Shown here: positions 1 to 7,459 of the stretch, piece by piece
Position numbering within the stretch: position 1 is the stretch's first letter
Layout of the letters: each line of letters starts with the position of its first letter
Assembly (NCBI GenBank): GCA_021789555.1
Contig: JAJYJK010000006.1
Location: 36,445-100,444, forward strand
Direction of reading: 5' to 3'
DNA: 64,000 nucleotides
Source: Nitrospirota bacterium
GTDB lineage: Bacteria > Nitrospirota > Thermodesulfovibrionia > Thermodesulfovibrionales > JdFR-88
Notes under the pieces: model-generated
Databases searched by the model: none
What the model saw: the letters and a program-made list of their open reading frames with translations, nothing else
Told to the model about the DNA's origin: nothing
Made by a program: the position numbers and the translations under genes

Positions 1-242
1 GGGACGGCCATTACCAGGCAGATATCGTGACAACCTCCAGGCGGCCCAAGAACATCAGCGTGCATCTTCGCAGTCAGACCCAGGAATGGTATATATTCCG
101 CATCCAGGAGCCGGCCGACGTCGATTATCTAAAGAAAATTCATAAGGATTTTCCGGCGTTGATAGAACGCCTGGAGATGTATCATTACATCTATTACGAT
201 ACGTTCAATCCGCCGGAAATCAGGGAGCCGATAGAGATATGA
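1..242 (+). CDS. hypothetical protein, 3' part of an ORF entering from the left edge
   Basis: Frame 3 is open from nt 3 (DGHYQADIV...) into the listed 27..242 ORF. No recognisable motif. Confidence 0.35.
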   Translation, partial: DGHYQADIVTTSRRPKNISVHLRSQTQEWYIFRIQEPADVDYLKKIHKDFPALIERLEMYHYIYYDTFNPPEIREPIEI

Positions 243-391
243 TCGTAGGTCGGTGCATATTTAGCATCCTCGATGCAGTTCCGGAGGTTCAGACGTTGAT
301 AGATATAGCAGCGGCGGCCAGCTTCCGGAGACGCCTGGCATGATAAATCTGCAAGAGGATAAGTCCTACCGCCCCTGGGAGGGAAAAGACC

Positions 392-667
392 ATGAATTGT
401 CCCAATCAAAAATGTAAAGGCTCGAAGCTGCAAACGAAGCGTACCCTGGCGAACGGTTCCGAGGTGACCAGAGAGAAATTCTGCCCTAAATGTGAAGGCC
501 GCTTTTTCACGACTGAGAAATTCAAGAATGATTGGGAGGCCTTAATCGGTAAATATCATGGGCAGCTGCGCGATCTATCGGATAGGACCCTGACCGCCGA
601 GGAAAAATACAAAGAGCTTACGAGGCTTATAAGCGCTGTTCTTTCCCACGTAAAAGCGGTTCGATAG
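392..667 (+). CDS. NrdR-like zinc-ribbon protein (putative nucleic-acid-binding regulator of the element)
   Basis: CPNQKC...x20...CPKCEGRFFTTEKF is a four-Cys ribbon with an RF-T-E signature, like the NrdR N-terminus. Confidence 0.5.
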   Translation: MNCPNQKCKGSKLQTKRTLANGSEVTREKFCPKCEGRFFTTEKFKNDWEALIGKYHGQLRDLSDRTLTAEEKYKELTRLISAVLSHVKAVR

Positions 668-795
668 ATTTATCTGGTCGGGCTTGCTGAGGCGTATCGA
701 GAAGATCGAGTTCTAGGCTATTTATCACTTTTTGTGTCGGCCGACAGAAAAAGACCCCGGGGCGGCTGGGAGGGCCCACCCCGGGGGGAAGGAAT

Positions 796-1212
796 CTATT
801 TGCGGGACTCGATATACGCGAACAAAGCGAGTCCGATGATTGCCGCTATGACTAGATAGTTCACTTCCCCGGTAAGCGGCTTGAACACACCACCAAGTGC
901 TGTCTCCGCACTGGGCAAGACCGTGCCCGGTTGCGAGGATGCTGTCCCGGCGTCCACGGCGAGGACCGCCGCGTTTGGATATCCCATATCCTGGAAGGCT
1001 GATACAAAGGCGCTCTGCATATCTGATATACTCTGGCCGCCGATCGGGCTGAACGTGATTATGTCTCGGTCCGCGAACCAGGGCGAATCGACCATGATGA
1101 TCGACTCATAACCGGCCAGACGCTGCACGAGCCCCTGGAGTACGCTATTATCAGAGGGAGGTATCTGATACCAGGCCAAATTCCGTTGAATTGTTATTGT
1201 ATATGTCGCCAT
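796..1212 (-). CDS. tail-anchored membrane protein (virion/internal membrane candidate)
   Basis: 138 aa with a single C-terminal TM segment (YLVIAAIIGLALFAYI). Last gene of the minus-strand module. Confidence 0.5.
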   Translation of the reverse strand: MATYTITIQRNLAWYQIPPSDNSVLQGLVQRLAGYESIIMVDSPWFADRDIITFSPIGGQSISDMQSAFVSAFQDMGYPNAAVLAVDAGTASSQPGTVLPSAETALGGVFKPLTGEVNYLVIAAIIGLALFAYIESRK

Positions 1213-1282
1213 TGCCTAAACTGACCTCGCCAAATGCCCCAGGAGCCACGATCGGCCCCTGGGCTGATATATACCATCCCCC

Positions 1283-1540
1283 CTAATTCCCTTGATGCAC
1301 AGGGAAGACCACGGGGGCCCACGTCTTGATCGTTGACGAGATCGCCGGCGCGATCTCGGAGGCCGTATGGGCCTGCCCTCCGACGCTCGAGGCCTGCCAG
1401 GCCCCCAGCGCGTCATTTACGAGTCCTTCGGCGTGGGCCTGCTTGTCAGGGCCCTTCCCGGGTCCGAAAAAGGCCTCCGCGTCCTGGATCGCTGCCAGAA
1501 TGAACGGGAACAGCTTTACCATGGTCTGCATGATCGTCAT
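1283..1540 (-). CDS. hypothetical protein (85 aa)
   Basis: The ATG at 1540 is preceded by AAGGAG with a 5-nt spacer. The longer start in the ORF track lacks an RBS. Confidence 0.45.
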   Translation of the reverse strand: MTIMQTMVKLFPFILAAIQDAEAFFGPGKGPDKQAHAEGLVNDALGAWQASSVGGQAHTASEIAPAISSTIKTWAPVVFPVHQGN

Positions 1541-1667
1541 ATGATCTCCTTGCCGCCCGCGATTTTCGGGCAATCGTTTTTAAGAACGGATAATACCCGT
1601 TCGTGATCGAAAAGTTTTTTGATGACCCAGGCCAACAGAGCCACGCTTAAAGGATCAATAGTGAAGT

Positions 1668-2150
1668 TCATCGGCCTATGAGCATCTTCCATTTTGTCCA
1701 GCGAAGCGATACCCGCGCATAATAGGTATCGTCCCAGATACCGGCTAGAAAATTCCCCGGCCCCTCGTTATAGCTCATGATCGCGGCCTCCCATTCCTTC
1801 ATCTCTGCATACAAAGCATGCAGATACGCCGCGCCGTAAAAGATGTTTATGCCAGGGTCATAAAGTCCGTCCGGTGTCCCTTGATACCCGAGGCCTCGAG
1901 CTGTCGGATAATCCAGCTGCATTAATCCGTAGGAGCCTCCATTACGGTCCGCCAGGAACGCAGTTGGCTGGAAGGAGCTTTCGGTCTCGATTATCGCCAT
2001 TATGAGCGAGGCGGGCACATCGGGAAATTTGGCGACCGCATCGTTTACCTGTTTTTCGTAGGGAAGCCCTGTCATTGTCGTATAACTCTCCTTTAGCAGG
2101 ATTAGTCCGGCCGCCATGCTCAATAGCAGCCAGAAATCGGAATCCTTCAC
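1668..2150 (-). CDS. lytic transglycosylase (SLT domain) with N-terminal membrane anchor
   Basis: ETESSFQP...GSYGLMQL...AAYL is the SLT catalytic Glu-Ser and GLMQ motif. N-terminal TM segment FWLLLSMAAGLILL. The GTG start overlaps the upstream stop (GTGA). Confidence 0.8.
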   Translation of the reverse strand: MKDSDFWLLLSMAAGLILLKESYTTMTGLPYEKQVNDAVAKFPDVPASLIMAIIETESSFQPTAFLADRNGGSYGLMQLDYPTARGLGYQGTPDGLYDPGINIFYGAAYLHALYAEMKEWEAAIMSYNEGPGNFLAGIWDDTYYARVSLRWTKWKMLIGR

Positions 2151-2266
2151 CGATGATGACGGCGATGGGTCTTCTTCGCGATCCGGCGCATGTGCTCTCT
2201 GCGTTTCGCGCTATGCGGAGCGCCTATCGACCCCCATTTTTTATGATGATGTTTTTTTTTCGCCAT
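2147..2266 (-). CDS. 39-aa hyperbasic peptide (putative genome-condensing/packaging protein)
   Basis: MAKKKHHHKKWGSIGAPHSAKRREHMRRIAKKTHRRHHR: 23 of 39 residues are K/R/H. A GAGGAGG RBS sits at 2271-2279. The stop overlaps the SLT start. The ORF is below the ORF-track size cutoff. Confidence 0.5.
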   Translation of the reverse strand: MAKKKHHHKKWGSIGAPHSAKRREHMRRIAKKTHRRHHR

Positions 2267-2278
2267 ATCATACCTCCT

Positions 2279-6091: not shown

Positions 6092-6103
6092 GTCGTATCC
6101 TCC

Positions 6104-6193
6104 TTAGATCGTTTTCGCTATGAACTTACCATAAATCCAGTTGCCCGCTATGACCGCGATGATTATGAGCCCGATTTTTTTGAGATCCTGCAT
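6104..6193 (-). CDS. 29-aa single-TM peptide
   Basis: MQDLKKIGLIIIAVIAGNWIYGKFIAKTI with a GGAGGC RBS. Its stop lies 12 nt before the capsid-like gene start. Not in the ORF track. Confidence 0.4.
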   Translation of the reverse strand: MQDLKKIGLIIIAVIAGNWIYGKFIAKTI

Positions 6194-6253
6194 TTCAAAG
6201 CCTCCTTGACAGAAGTTTTTATGGTTATCATGGCCTGAGTATACGGAAATTGC

Positions 6254-6291
6254 AGAAAGAAAAAAAGAGGTGCCCAGGGATGTCCCTGGGC
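6254..6291 (-). terminator. rho-independent terminator separating the regulatory and structural genes of the element
   Basis: On the minus strand: GCCCAGGGA-ca-TCCCTGGGC, a 9-bp stem, followed by ACCTCTTTTTTTCTTTC. Confidence 0.55.
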
Positions 6292-6328
6292 ATCCCTGGG
6301 GGGGAGATTGACTTTAAAAAAGGGAGGG

Positions 6329-6451
6329 TTAATCAGACTTCACGTCGCGGTAAATTTCGTAAGAATAACCGCCTATGATTTCGCGGATTGCCTTTTCAAT
6401 TGCTTGCATCTCATCGTCGGCTGCTTCAAGCCTGATCACATATTTTGTCAT
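6329..6451 (-). CDS. 40-aa acidic hypothetical protein
   Basis: MTKYVIRLEAADDEMQAIEKAIREIIGGYSYEIYRDVKSD. AGGAAA lies upstream. Not in the ORF track. Confidence 0.3.
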   Translation of the reverse strand: MTKYVIRLEAADDEMQAIEKAIREIIGGYSYEIYRDVKSD

Positions 6452-6563
6452 CTCAAATTTTCCTTTCTTGCATATCTATCAAGCCTGGCTATCCAGATCG
6501 CCAGCGCCGCCTGCTATATCTATCGCGCTACGCTCCAGGAGTGCAACTCCCGGGATGCTAAAT

Positions 6564-6767
6564 CTACCATCCTTCAGGATGATATGCAGGGGGATGATAG
6601 GGCATCGGATCGTAGACAGGTTGATTCCATGACCCCGGCCCTGAATAGGCCGGTACGTTGCTCACAGCCGGCGCTGCCGGCGCGTTGCTTAGGGCAGGGG
6701 CACAGCTCGGGTCCCCACAGCCGGCCAAGGCGAGCAGGACGATTACGAAAAGAGCGCTACGTTTCAT
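6564..6767 (-). CDS. small Pro-rich lipoprotein
   Basis: Lipobox LLALAGC after a basic N-terminus. 11-nt overlap with the upstream regulator gene. Confidence 0.5.
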   Translation of the reverse strand: MKRSALFVIVLLALAGCGDPSCAPALSNAPAAPAVSNVPAYSGPGSWNQPVYDPMPYHPPAYHPEGW

Positions 6768-7209
6768 CGATGGCCCTCCTGATGGTCTGATAGCTAAGAC
6801 CGTATTTTTTTTGGAGTTGAGTGATTTTCATTCCCTGGCTGAATTCTTCCCGGATCCGGGCGCGGGTCTTTGCCTTTTCAAGGCGGCGTCCTTCGGAGAT
6901 GTACAGGCCGGTCGAGAACACGTCAAGCCCAAATTCGGCCCGAAGCTGTGTAATGCACTGAGAGCGATCTTTAGGCCCTAAAAGGTATCGTTGATATACT
7001 TCGGCCGAGAATGCCTCAAATTGGGCACGTCGCGCAGCCATTACGAGGGAATCACGGGCTTTCGCTTCGGCTTCAGCTGCCTTTTTCCGGTTTTTGACGT
7101 ATCTGGCTATGTCCAGGAGCTTCGAGAGGACCATAATCAGATCATCAATAACTTCAGGATCGCATTGAATCGAGACGCCTTGGGGAGAGCTCTTTTCAAT
7201 CTCGAACAT
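6757..7209 (-). CDS. HTH DNA-binding regulator of the element
   Basis: C-terminal helix-turn-helix (MKITQLQKKYGLSYQTIRRAIDE) after a coiled-coil-like region. First gene of the minus-strand module. Confidence 0.6.
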   Translation of the reverse strand: MFEIEKSSPQGVSIQCDPEVIDDLIMVLSKLLDIARYVKNRKKAAEAEAKARDSLVMAARRAQFEAFSAEVYQRYLLGPKDRSQCITQLRAEFGLDVFSTGLYISEGRRLEKAKTRARIREEFSQGMKITQLQKKYGLSYQTIRRAIDET

Positions 7210-7459
7210 GGCAGGGACCTCCGGGAAAGGGTATTTATCTCTTTATCGGGGTCCCGGAAGATGGGAATCGAGGAAAAACAAAGGCCAATGGCCAGAATTA
7301 TTTTACATAATATACATTATCAGACATTATGAATTAACCGGCAGTGTTGAAAAACTGTTATTAACCCGGAGGCCCTCAACAATTGACCCTTACCTGTTTT
7401 GAATTTGTACGGGACTGGTCAGCTTTTGTGCAGCAGGATTTTATTGCAGAATCAATTAA

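Follow-up and report, generated by a model that had tools for sequence, protein, structure and literature searches.

Several described systems bear on the locus analyzed here. The group of Sulfolobus turreted icosahedral virus (STIV), one of the groups of viruses with a double jelly-roll (DJR) major capsid protein (MCP), includes bacterial members (Yutin et al., 2018; PMC5894146). Among these are a Nitrospirae prophage (OGW22912/MHDU01000077; Additional file 6 of that study) that carries, in this order, genes for a helix-turn-helix (HTH) protein, MazE, an NrdR-type regulator, an ATPase, a PIN protein, the MCP, and a lysin, as well as contigs of 10-11 kb that encode HTH, Rep, ATPase, MCP, and lysin proteins. 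Many proviruses of the STIV and PM2 groups encode integrases, and the MCPs of the FLiP group are unconnected by sequence to other DJR MCPs (PMC5894146). In addition, DJR prophages of Vibrio that integrate at dif carry a 17-bp, one-armed attP (PMC12715192; also PMC9966536 and PMC11630473), and the PhiCjT23-like prophages of Flavobacterium are flanked by dif motifs (PMC9719478). The present analysis concerns a stretch of 64,000 nucleotides, hereafter the window, from the Nitrospirota assembly GCA_021789555.1 (contig JAJYJK010000006.1, positions 36,445 to 100,444 of the forward strand). Positions 1-7327 of the window are very probably the right-hand 7.3 kb of a temperate, tailless DJR virus of ~11 kb, integrated at the dif site of a Nitrospiraceae chromosome as an integrative mobile element that makes use of Xer recombination (IMEX), and the region is a real and apparently intact prophage of a tailless, membrane-containing virus. 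Bacterial DJR prophages, including the one from Nitrospirae, and the exploitation of Xer by DJR phages have been published separately; in this locus the two are combined in Nitrospirota, and the concepts are left unchanged because each component was already published. An initial annotation, made from the sequence of the window alone, had described such viruses as essentially undescribed in this lineage, which is too strong a statement in view of the published Nitrospirae prophage.

The MCP is a 305-aa protein encoded at 5174..6091 (-). It matched the C-terminal domain of the viral coat protein P2 (P2_C, Pfam accession PF25513) with an E-value of 7.4e-10, above the gathering score, and its AlphaFold2 model, built with seven homologs, showed two beta-sandwich halves (pLDDT 76, pTM 0.75). 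In a Foldseek comparison of the model with the PDB, the matches were the MCP of STIV (2bbd; 5e-16), P3 of PRD1 (7e-16), the MCP of PR772 (~1e-15), Vp54 of PBCV-1 (~1e-12), and P2 of PM2 (2vvf; 1.6e-12), with TM scores from 0.67 to 0.80 against the STIV, PRD1, PM2, and PBCV-1 capsids; against BFVD, the capsid proteins of Wip1, GC1, and STIV were found. A family profile of 40 MCP sequences identified the STIV coat protein (3j31/2bbd) as the only significant family among the PDB sequences (E-value 5.6e-5). By Pfam, predicted fold, and profile, the protein is a DJR MCP, and the two vertical jelly-rolls of the model are those expected of DJR-MCP viruses (kingdom Bamfordvirae, Tectiliviricetes-like at the level of class). 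The jelly-roll capsid that the initial annotation had presumed was therefore recovered by both Pfam and the predicted fold.

Relatives were sought through the MCP. A word-indexed search returned only seven homologs, and an exhaustive profile search returned 639 cluster representatives at E<=1e-3, including 38 at E<=1e-30; all ten of the relatives that were checked were metagenome proteins. Motif scans with the MCP and ATPase alignments gave no close relative among the species representatives of GTDB or in IMG/VR, and 50,697 deposited phage records, searched with the MCP by tblastn, gave nothing at E<=1 and hence no Nitrospirota virus as a relative. Since the GTDB, IMG/VR, and phage-record searches came back empty, close relatives are placed only in raw metagenome assemblies. 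Two of these, L005 (9,916 bp) and L014 (10,523 bp), each have a terminal overlap of 141 bp and close into circles of 9.8 and 10.4 kb, while L006 is a circular permutation of L005 from a separate assembly. A further relative, L009, is integrated beside mtaB/miaB exactly as the window element is. The modules common to the relatives are a cI-like or Mor-like regulator, iterons with a Rep-like gene, two acidic proteins of 72-150 aa (possibly scaffolding), the ATPase, a 29-aa peptide together with the MCP, membrane proteins, vertex proteins of the 200-aa class, a basic peptide, a lysin, and three small conserved proteins.

The packaging ATPase lies across the left edge of the window. Positions 1..242 (+), with the window ORF (open reading frame) at 27-242, hold the last 79 codons and the stop codon of a 199-aa protein of the FtsK/HerA superfamily and STIV B204 type, and the ORF translation is the C-terminus of P0009, a 199-aa product (M0Z48_04430) encoded on the same Nitrospiraceae contig of 101.7 kb. 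Both Walker motifs, A (GMQRQGKT) and B (LVADEID), are outside the window, 358 bp to its left. The complete gene is present on L027, a contig from Logan that was returned by an exact look-up of the zinc-ribbon protein at 392-667; its sequence agrees with window 1-788 at 100% identity and continues for 2,848 bp on the left. Exact look-ups of the MCP and of P0009 did not bring up the 101.7-kb source contig. The initial annotation had found no Walker A ATPase in the first 7.4 kb and had placed one possibly beyond the left edge, and both statements held for the motif and the bulk of the gene, while the last 79 residues, encoded within the window, had been missed. All of the relatives found through the MCP encode a protein of 184-199 aa with the Walker A motif GMQRxGKT and the Walker B motif DEID. 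The family profile matched B204 of STIV over its full length (4kfr/4r2h; E-value 1.9e-4) and also HerA proteins, and the ATPase matched phrog_2666 (E-value 2.5e-14). These matches point to a packaging ATPase of the FtsK/HerA superfamily, as is expected of DJR-MCP viruses.

In L027, the gene order from left to right is two iterons of 21 nt at the very start, a gene for a 253-aa winged-helix Rep-like protein, five small ORFs, and the complete ATPase gene. The leftward extension of 2.85 kb that the initial annotation had called for thus supplied the rest of the ATPase, iterons, and a Rep-like gene, and no integrase. The Rep-like protein of L027 shares 70% identity with that of the relative L013 over the aligned part and had weak matches to HTH_36 and to a "replication initiation protein". 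More generally, the Rep-like proteins of L027, L013, and L014 had only weak winged helix-turn-helix (wHTH), DnaD-like, and "replication initiation" matches and adjoin iterons of 21-24 nt, and none of the three gave a family match to a Rep of the HUH type, as used in rolling-circle replication (RCR). Of the two genes for which a search had been proposed, an FtsK-type ATPase and an HUH Rep, the former was found and the latter was not detected. Directly upstream of the Rep-like gene, two to four partly palindromic repeats of 21-24 nt were observed (L027 4-45, L013 651-736, L014 3016-3107). The repeat sequence differs in each lineage, and L027 breaks inside the repeats; they look like iterons or operators that may co-evolve with the Rep-like protein.

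This replication module and the ATPase bear on two alternatives. The initial annotation had considered an FLiP-like single-stranded DNA (ssDNA) virus, that is, a member of the Finnlakeviridae related to FLiP and PhiCjT23 and without a packaging ATPase. The size and content of the element are similar (small genome, DJR MCP, transglycosylase, many small proteins), and the PhiCjT23-like prophages are also found at dif. However, the element encodes a packaging ATPase with intact Walker A and B motifs, its replication gene encodes a wHTH protein beside iterons with no HUH or RCR Rep detected, and its MCP matches P2_C and STIV profiles while the MCPs of the FLiP group are unconnected by sequence (PMC5894146), so that this assignment is extremely improbable. 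A true corticovirus, PM2-like and within the Corticoviridae and Vinavirales, would account for the match of the C-terminal jelly-roll to P2_C and for relatives with circular genomes of ~10 kb; a zinc-finger regulator and many membrane proteins also recall PM2. In contrast, the family profile matched the STIV coat protein and left PM2 P2 unmatched in the PDB, STIV and PRD1 (~1e-16) ranked above PM2 P2 in Foldseek, the ATPase profile matched STIV B204, and the tblastn search above, which included PM2-like phages, was empty. A P12-like rolling-circle Rep as in PM2 also appears to be absent, with wHTH proteins and iterons in its place and no HUH family match. Taken together, a corticovirus is quite unlikely. 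The features of Tectiviridae (a linear genome, terminal inverted repeats, and a protein-primed family-B polymerase) likewise do not seem to apply, as the relatives are circular and no PolB was found in any locus.

Because the closest profile relatives are STIV proteins, we propose that the element belongs to the bacterial branch of the STIV group and not to Corticoviridae or Finnlakeviridae. The STIV-related MCP and the B204-like ATPase expected of that branch (Yutin et al., 2018) are suggested by weak but concordant signals. Like the bacterial STIV-group proviruses, the element combines an STIV-related MCP and ATPase with an HTH regulator, a Rep, a lysin, and an NrdR-type regulator, has a size of ~10-11 kb and a host in Nitrospirae/Nitrospirota, and has both proviral and circular forms among its kin. 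Compared by its published description, the Nitrospirae prophage OGW22912 differs in being located beside a prolyl-tRNA synthetase gene and in having PIN and MazE genes, whereas the window element is located at dif beside mtaB and has a Mor-like regulator. STIV itself (Turriviridae) is the best match of solved structure for the MCP, by both profile and Foldseek (2bbd/3j31), and for the full-length ATPase (B204; 4kfr/4r2h), and its internal-membrane icosahedral architecture is probably shared. However, STIV has an archaeal host, a genome of 17.6 kb, a tyrosine integrase, and turret proteins, while the host of the element is bacterial and the element encodes a murein transglycosylase, no integrase, and an MCP with 16% structure-aligned identity. 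PM2 and FLiP/PhiCjT23 resemble the element in their small circular genome, DJR MCP, internal membrane with many small membrane proteins, and transglycosylase; PM2 differs in its RCR Rep and in P2, a more distant structural match, and FLiP and PhiCjT23 differ as ssDNA viruses without a packaging ATPase, in contrast to the ATPase and iteron/wHTH module found here. The initial view of a PM2- or FLiP-type virus was therefore right as to a tailless DJR virus of the internal-membrane type, but not as to a strictly PM2-like or FLiP-like one, as STIV proteins are the closest.

The right-hand junction of the prophage with the host is a 28-bp dif-like XerC/XerD site at 7300..7327 (-), ATGTCTGATAA-TGTATA-TTATGTAAAAT, located between the start of the Mor-like gene at 7209 and the stop of mtaB at 7460. 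The XerD arm is on the virus side and the XerC arm on the mtaB side. The element had initially been delimited as 1-7450; its right end is instead at this site, with 7327 as the latest position, and 7328-7459 belongs to the host, downstream of mtaB. Within the 64 kb of the window the site occurs once (0.00 matches expected by chance), and its XerD arm agrees at 10 of 11 positions with the arm of the Vibrio/E. coli dif, ATTTAACATAA (quoted in PMC12715192).

A comparison of the arms separated integrated from circular copies. The integrated copies have host-type XerC arms and share a homologous flank on the mtaB side: the XerC arm, central region, and XerD arm are ATGTCTGATAA, TGTATA, and TTATGTAAAAT in the window and in L001 (an independent Logan assembly of the same sample, 99.99% identical to window 759-8640), ATGTCCGATAA, TGTATA, and TTATGTAAAAT in L009, and ATGTCCGATAA, GATATA, and TTATGTTAAGT in L003. 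In contrast, the circular genomes L005, L006, and L014 retain only a one-armed copy of 17 bp, GATATA-TTATGTAAAAT, with unrelated sequence on the XerC side (ATGTGCGTCTT in L005/L006 and TAAGGTCGCAA in L014). Homology between integrated and circular forms ends at the XerC arm.

The exact 28-mer (ATGTCTGATAATGTATATTATGTAAAAT) was also found in 10 metagenome contigs (L017-L026) of 44-62% GC with otherwise unrelated flanks. The flanking ORFs tested there matched cellular families (YqeY, TruB, glycosyltransferases) or nothing, and none of the viral genes tested was present when the viral protein set was searched in these contigs. In L020, mtaB is followed by the 28-mer and then by a multihaem cytochrome c gene, which is the arrangement of an unoccupied site. 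The 28-mer may be the dif of a whole clade and, as such, a terminus marker. As a side observation, the 28-mer in L017, L018, L022, and L023 adjoins a conserved secreted protein of ~280-310 aa with the motif NRPVNTSG(L/M)TGLL.

The junction and attP pattern, together with the lack of a recombinase match among the scanned proteins of the circular genomes, constitute the signature of an IMEX. No recombinase family match was obtained among the scanned proteins of the 10.2 kb of the element seen so far (its window part and L027) or among the larger proteins of L005, L013, and L014. An IMEX would lack a recombinase of its own, which agrees with these 10.2 kb and with circular L005 and L014, some 0.7 kb at the left end being unseen; it would also have an attP that resembles dif and would form hybrid junctions on integration at the host dif, a pattern that the one visible junction of this prophage appears to follow. 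A Xer-exploiting prophage is thus the most likely identity of the element. Alternatively, a recombinase of its own could be encoded in the 0.6-0.8 kb of the left end that remain unseen, with the dif-like sequence being coincidental or a private att site, and many STIV-group and PM2-group proviruses do encode integrases. However, the scanned proteins of circular L005 and L014 include no integrase or recombinase match, the unseen stretch would, by synteny with L013 and L014, hold a cI-like repressor and be too short for an integrase, and the 28-mer is conserved in unrelated contigs in which no viral genes were found. We consider an element-encoded recombinase very unlikely. A motif scan of the window for xerC and xerD found neither, which is uninformative either way.

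The dif-type DJR prophages of Vibrio provide the nearest parallel for this mode of integration. They are likewise tailless and temperate, have no integrase, carry a full-length or 17-bp one-armed dif mimic as attP, and integrate as IMEXs at the host dif such that one junction regenerates a canonical dif. They differ as Vinavirales of the PM2/P2 lineage with genomes of ~12.9 kb and gammaproteobacterial hosts, whereas the element has ~11 kb, an STIV-like MCP and ATPase, and a host in Nitrospirota. The Vibrio cholerae IMEXs CTXphi, VGJphi, and TLCphi also have no integrase, carry a dif-like attP, and exploit the host XerCD, but they are filamentous ssDNA phages or satellites; in the present element, the degenerate arm is that of XerC and the identity in the central region is on the XerD side.

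The rest of the element agrees with a virus of this kind. Seventeen tightly packed ORFs were confirmed on the minus strand from 7209 down to 796, where the initial annotation had counted at least 17 small genes. Twelve of their 16 junctions are overlaps or gaps of <=12 nt, the other four being gaps of 135, 112, 70, and 12 nt, and the gene calls of L001 recovered 16 of the 17 genes. Genes for a tail, portal, terminase, or integrase were found neither in the window nor in the 2.85-kb leftward extension nor in the complete circular relatives, which extends the same observation made initially for 1-7450. The GC content is 50.8% in 1-7450 and 56.6% in the remainder of the window; the trough noted earlier is real but local, with 38.3% in the 60-nt sample 3301-3360 and 41-45% at 2750-3750. 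Hydropathy showed a clear C-terminal hydrophobic anchor in five proteins (80, 132, 105, 75, and 138 aa), so that the proposal of small anchored proteins stood but the count of six did not, and a single central transmembrane (TM) segment in the 29-aa peptide. A secretion or pilus island, or a set of conserved chromosomal genes, was rejected in view of the DJR MCP, the packaging ATPase, and the circular relatives.

All of the genes seen of the element are intact, and nothing points to decay. The initial description as an integrated or decaying virus is accordingly retained in its first part only. A remnant, either defective or domesticated, in the form of a cryptic prophage that has ceased to produce virions, would be in keeping with the lack of an observed excision product of the exact element and with a left end that has not been seen, and IMEX integration can be irreversible, as for CTXphi. 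On the other hand, the 17 late and regulatory genes, the ATPase, the Rep-like gene, and the regulators are all intact and tightly packed, for every core gene the circular relatives have an intact counterpart, and the same samples (SRR13170411, ERZ27233565) contain close relatives as circular contigs. A remnant is therefore unlikely, and an intact prophage is preferred. The circles of L005, L006, and L014 represent either episomal or virion genomes or tandem arrays.

Several observations weigh against an intact STIV-like prophage integrated by Xer, in whole or in part. The left junction is unseen, since L027 stops in the iterons, and both the second att site and the terminal 0.6-0.8 kb were predicted from L013 and L014. 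In L012, the flank on the XerD side of the site beside host genes is still phage-like, so that this is not a clean reciprocal junction. Cumulative GC skew peaks near 7.3 kb at a fine scale, but at a scale of 4 kb the host skew follows gene orientation and is not diagnostic, with no clear terminus signature around the site. Tandem prophage arrays, a common state of IMEXs, can likewise give rise to circular contigs. The Pfam match of the MCP is to the PM2 P2 family and its profile match to STIV, so that placement within the DJR groups rests on weak sequence signals, the assignment to the STIV group being based on E-values of ~1e-4 to 1e-5 and on gene content. Finally, while five or six small TM-anchored proteins fit an internal membrane, the 208-aa candidate for the vertex gave a single-sequence AlphaFold2 model with a pLDDT of 46, too poor for a fold search, and no match in a profile search of PDB sequences, where a single jelly-roll penton might be expected.

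By analogy with PRD1, PM2, and STIV, the virion would be a tailless icosahedral shell of trimeric DJR capsid protein over an internal membrane. Many small proteins anchored by their C-termini would be set in the membrane, vertex or spike proteins would be encoded at 2973-4203, and a circular double-stranded DNA genome would be pumped in by the small STIV-B204-like FtsK/HerA ATPase. The SLT transglycosylase would serve in entry or lysis, and the basic peptide would condense the DNA. The late genes would form one operon, probably activated by the Mor-like protein, starting past the terminator-like hairpin at 6271-6300, and replication would involve an iteron-binding winged-helix initiator that recruits the host machinery. 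The virus would carry, in place of a recombinase, a one-armed dif mimic composed of the XerD arm and most of the central region; host XerC and XerD would insert it into the host dif downstream of mtaB, and the insertion would regenerate a canonical dif at the mtaB-proximal junction. The element would need no integrase because host enzymes are apparently used for insertion at dif.

The attP has a perfect XerD arm, identity in the central region only on the XerD side, and no recognizable XerC arm. If the proposed mode of integration is true, this unusual geometry would imply a XerD-first or activator-dependent pathway, which to our knowledge is otherwise known only from TLCphi. A wider proposal, which we regard as possible but doubtful, is that the element and ~40 metagenome-only MCP subfamilies form a family-level lineage of STIV-like membrane viruses in Nitrospirota and neighbouring phyla that became IMEXs independently, with such an integration pathway. 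Nitrospirota is the phylum of nitrite oxidisers and of iron oxidisers of the Leptospirillum type. Prophage finders tuned to tailed phages systematically miss tailless DJR viruses, and the locus provides an example that is nearly complete, apparently intact, and has a precise junction. With it, the lifestyle of dif-type DJR phages, described for Vibrio and the PM2 lineage, is extended to another phylum and an STIV-like lineage. A candidate dif of 28 bp is also obtained for the host group, and this 28-mer and the half-site of 17 bp can serve as simple probes for further elements and for the replication terminus in metagenome-assembled genomes (MAGs).

Among the remaining features, the regulatory genes are at the two ends of the window part. 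The 150-aa Mor-like HTH protein at 6757..7209 (-), which had been noted as an HTH regulator, matched PF08765 (E-value 5.4e-6, above the gathering score) and the "late transcriptional activator" family phrog_532 (E-value 1.8e-8), and is a putative activator of late transcription. Its gene is viral and not of the host because a homolog is located inside the circular genome L014. An inverted repeat, GGGACC...GGTCCC, spans the ribosome-binding site (GGAGG) of this gene at window 7213-7256 (-) and is conserved in the window, L009, L003, and L014; no compensatory changes or covariation were found across these four elements and hence no evidence for a regulatory RNA structure. The stop codon of the Mor-like gene is overlapped by the gene of a 67-aa putative lipoprotein at 6564..6767 (-) with the lipobox LLALAGC and a homolog in L003, followed by a 40-aa acidic ORF at 6329..6451 (-) that was called in L001 and had no match in the family search. 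A strong terminator-like hairpin with a T-run, identified by pattern match only, is located at 6271..6300 (-) between the unit of these three genes and the late structural operon. At the other end, a 91-aa NrdR-like zinc-ribbon protein at 392..667 (+), co-directional with the ATPase, matched Zn_ribbon_NrdR (PF22811; E-value 1e-5) and the N-terminus of NrdR (TIGR00244; E-value 3.6e-5), has a homolog at the equivalent place in L003, and is a putative transcription regulator. A palindrome with T and A runs on either side at 728..753 (.), found by repeat search between the convergent operons, is likely a bidirectional terminator; the Logan contigs L001 and L027 both end near it, at window 759 and 788, respectively.

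The late operon begins with the single-TM peptide of 29 aa at 6104..6193 (-), which is always immediately upstream of the MCP gene and was called in L001, L005, L009, L012, and L014. Downstream of the MCP, three proteins with C-terminal TM anchors by hydropathy are encoded: one of 80 aa at 4920..5162 (-) with a weak match to the virion structural family phrog_5402, a Ser/Thr/Pro-rich one of 132 aa at 4517..4915 (-), and one of 105 aa at 4200..4517 (-), the latter two with homologs in relatives. The 208-aa beta-rich protein at 3577..4203 (-), a candidate penton or vertex protein, is conserved with 59-74% identity in L003, L005, and L009 and has a 30% homolog in L014; it matched phrog_30212 (E-value 1.4e-13). 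The 200-aa protein at 2973..3575 (-), encoded in the part of the element with the lowest GC content (41-45%), is a candidate receptor-binding spike: compared with the 213-aa protein of L005 and the 187-aa protein of L009, its N-terminal motif, NNYPGSV, is conserved and its C-terminal part is divergent. Within its coding sequence, in the stretch of lowest GC, a perfect 18-nt inverted repeat with an 8-nt spacer was observed at window 3337-3380 (ATTATAATTGGCAATCCT / AGGATTGCCAATTATAAT). The 159-aa beta-rich protein at 2497..2976 (-) varies among relatives and gave only a weak tail-fibre PHROG match (E-value 0.01). Both it and the 200-aa protein have signal-like N-terminal segments by hydropathy, in agreement with the two signal-peptide proteins noted initially.

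Toward the end of the operon, a 75-aa protein at 2279..2506 (-) has a C-terminal TM anchor by hydropathy and homologs in L003 and L005. The 39-aa hyperbasic peptide at 2147..2266 (-), which the initial annotation had also singled out, has 23 K/R/H residues and a conserved 35-aa homolog in L005 (KKWGSIGAPHSAKR..HMRRIAKK); its composition suggests a possible DNA-condensing core protein. The SLT-family lytic transglycosylase at 1668..2150 (-), likewise recognized at the outset, matched PF01464 (E-value 1.4e-21) and several PHROG transglycosylase and endolysin families, and may be either virion-associated or a lysis enzyme. Directly downstream, a peptide of 44-51 aa at 1537..1692 (-), conserved in L005, L013, and L014, has a moderately hydrophobic N-terminal segment (maxKD19 1.39) and is, from its position only, a holin-like candidate. 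A protein of 85-96 aa in the lysis-proximal block at 1283..1573 (-) gave no match in the family search and is conserved in L003, L005, L009, L013, and L014, and the same five relatives have homologs, at the equivalent position, of the final gene of the operon, which encodes the 138-aa protein with a C-terminal TM anchor by hydropathy at 796..1212 (-).

The relatives differ from the window element in several respects. The late structural block, which runs from the gene of the 29-aa peptide, past the MCP, to the 138/147-aa gene, has opposite orientations in the window, L003, and L013 on one side and in L005, L009, L012, and L014 on the other; it corresponds to window 796-6193 and L009 2600-7524, and the orientation of Mor, dif, mtaB, and the ATPase is unchanged. 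No convincing pair of inverted repeats was found flanking the block, and an invertible switch was therefore rejected in favor of an evolutionary rearrangement. In L014, the gene at the MCP position (6142-7122) encodes 326 aa and is marginally related to the MCP family of the window (hhalign E-value 2.6e-4, probability 42%; P2_C E-value 0.057), and it is followed by a gene for a 497-aa protein that is absent in the other relatives. The ATPase, Mor, Rep-like, and small conserved genes are otherwise common to L014 and the window element, which suggests either exchange of the capsid module or extreme divergence within one virus group. In L005, a 93-aa ORF at 4028-4309 in the early region, beside a DUF6948 protein, is composed over nearly its whole length of dipeptide repeats of the types G-Y, G-S, and G-D (GYGYGSGYGDGYG...) and has no counterpart in the window. 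In L013, the last conserved late gene is followed at 5200-5661 by a gene for a 153-aa protein with a phage tail-collar domain (PF07484), which suggests swapping of receptor-binding modules with tailed phages. Additionally, the analysis flagged a mis-binned contig. L003 (GCA_029786415.1, JAFLXT010000039.1; 7,252 bp) was deposited in a MAG of a "Nitrososphaerota archaeon", while it encodes an MCP of 88% identity and a murein transglycosylase, and has the bacterial mtaB-downstream flank at 1-132 and a dif-like site at 133-160 that agrees with that of the window at 26 of 28 positions. It is very probably a fragment of a bacterial provirus and not an archaeal virus.

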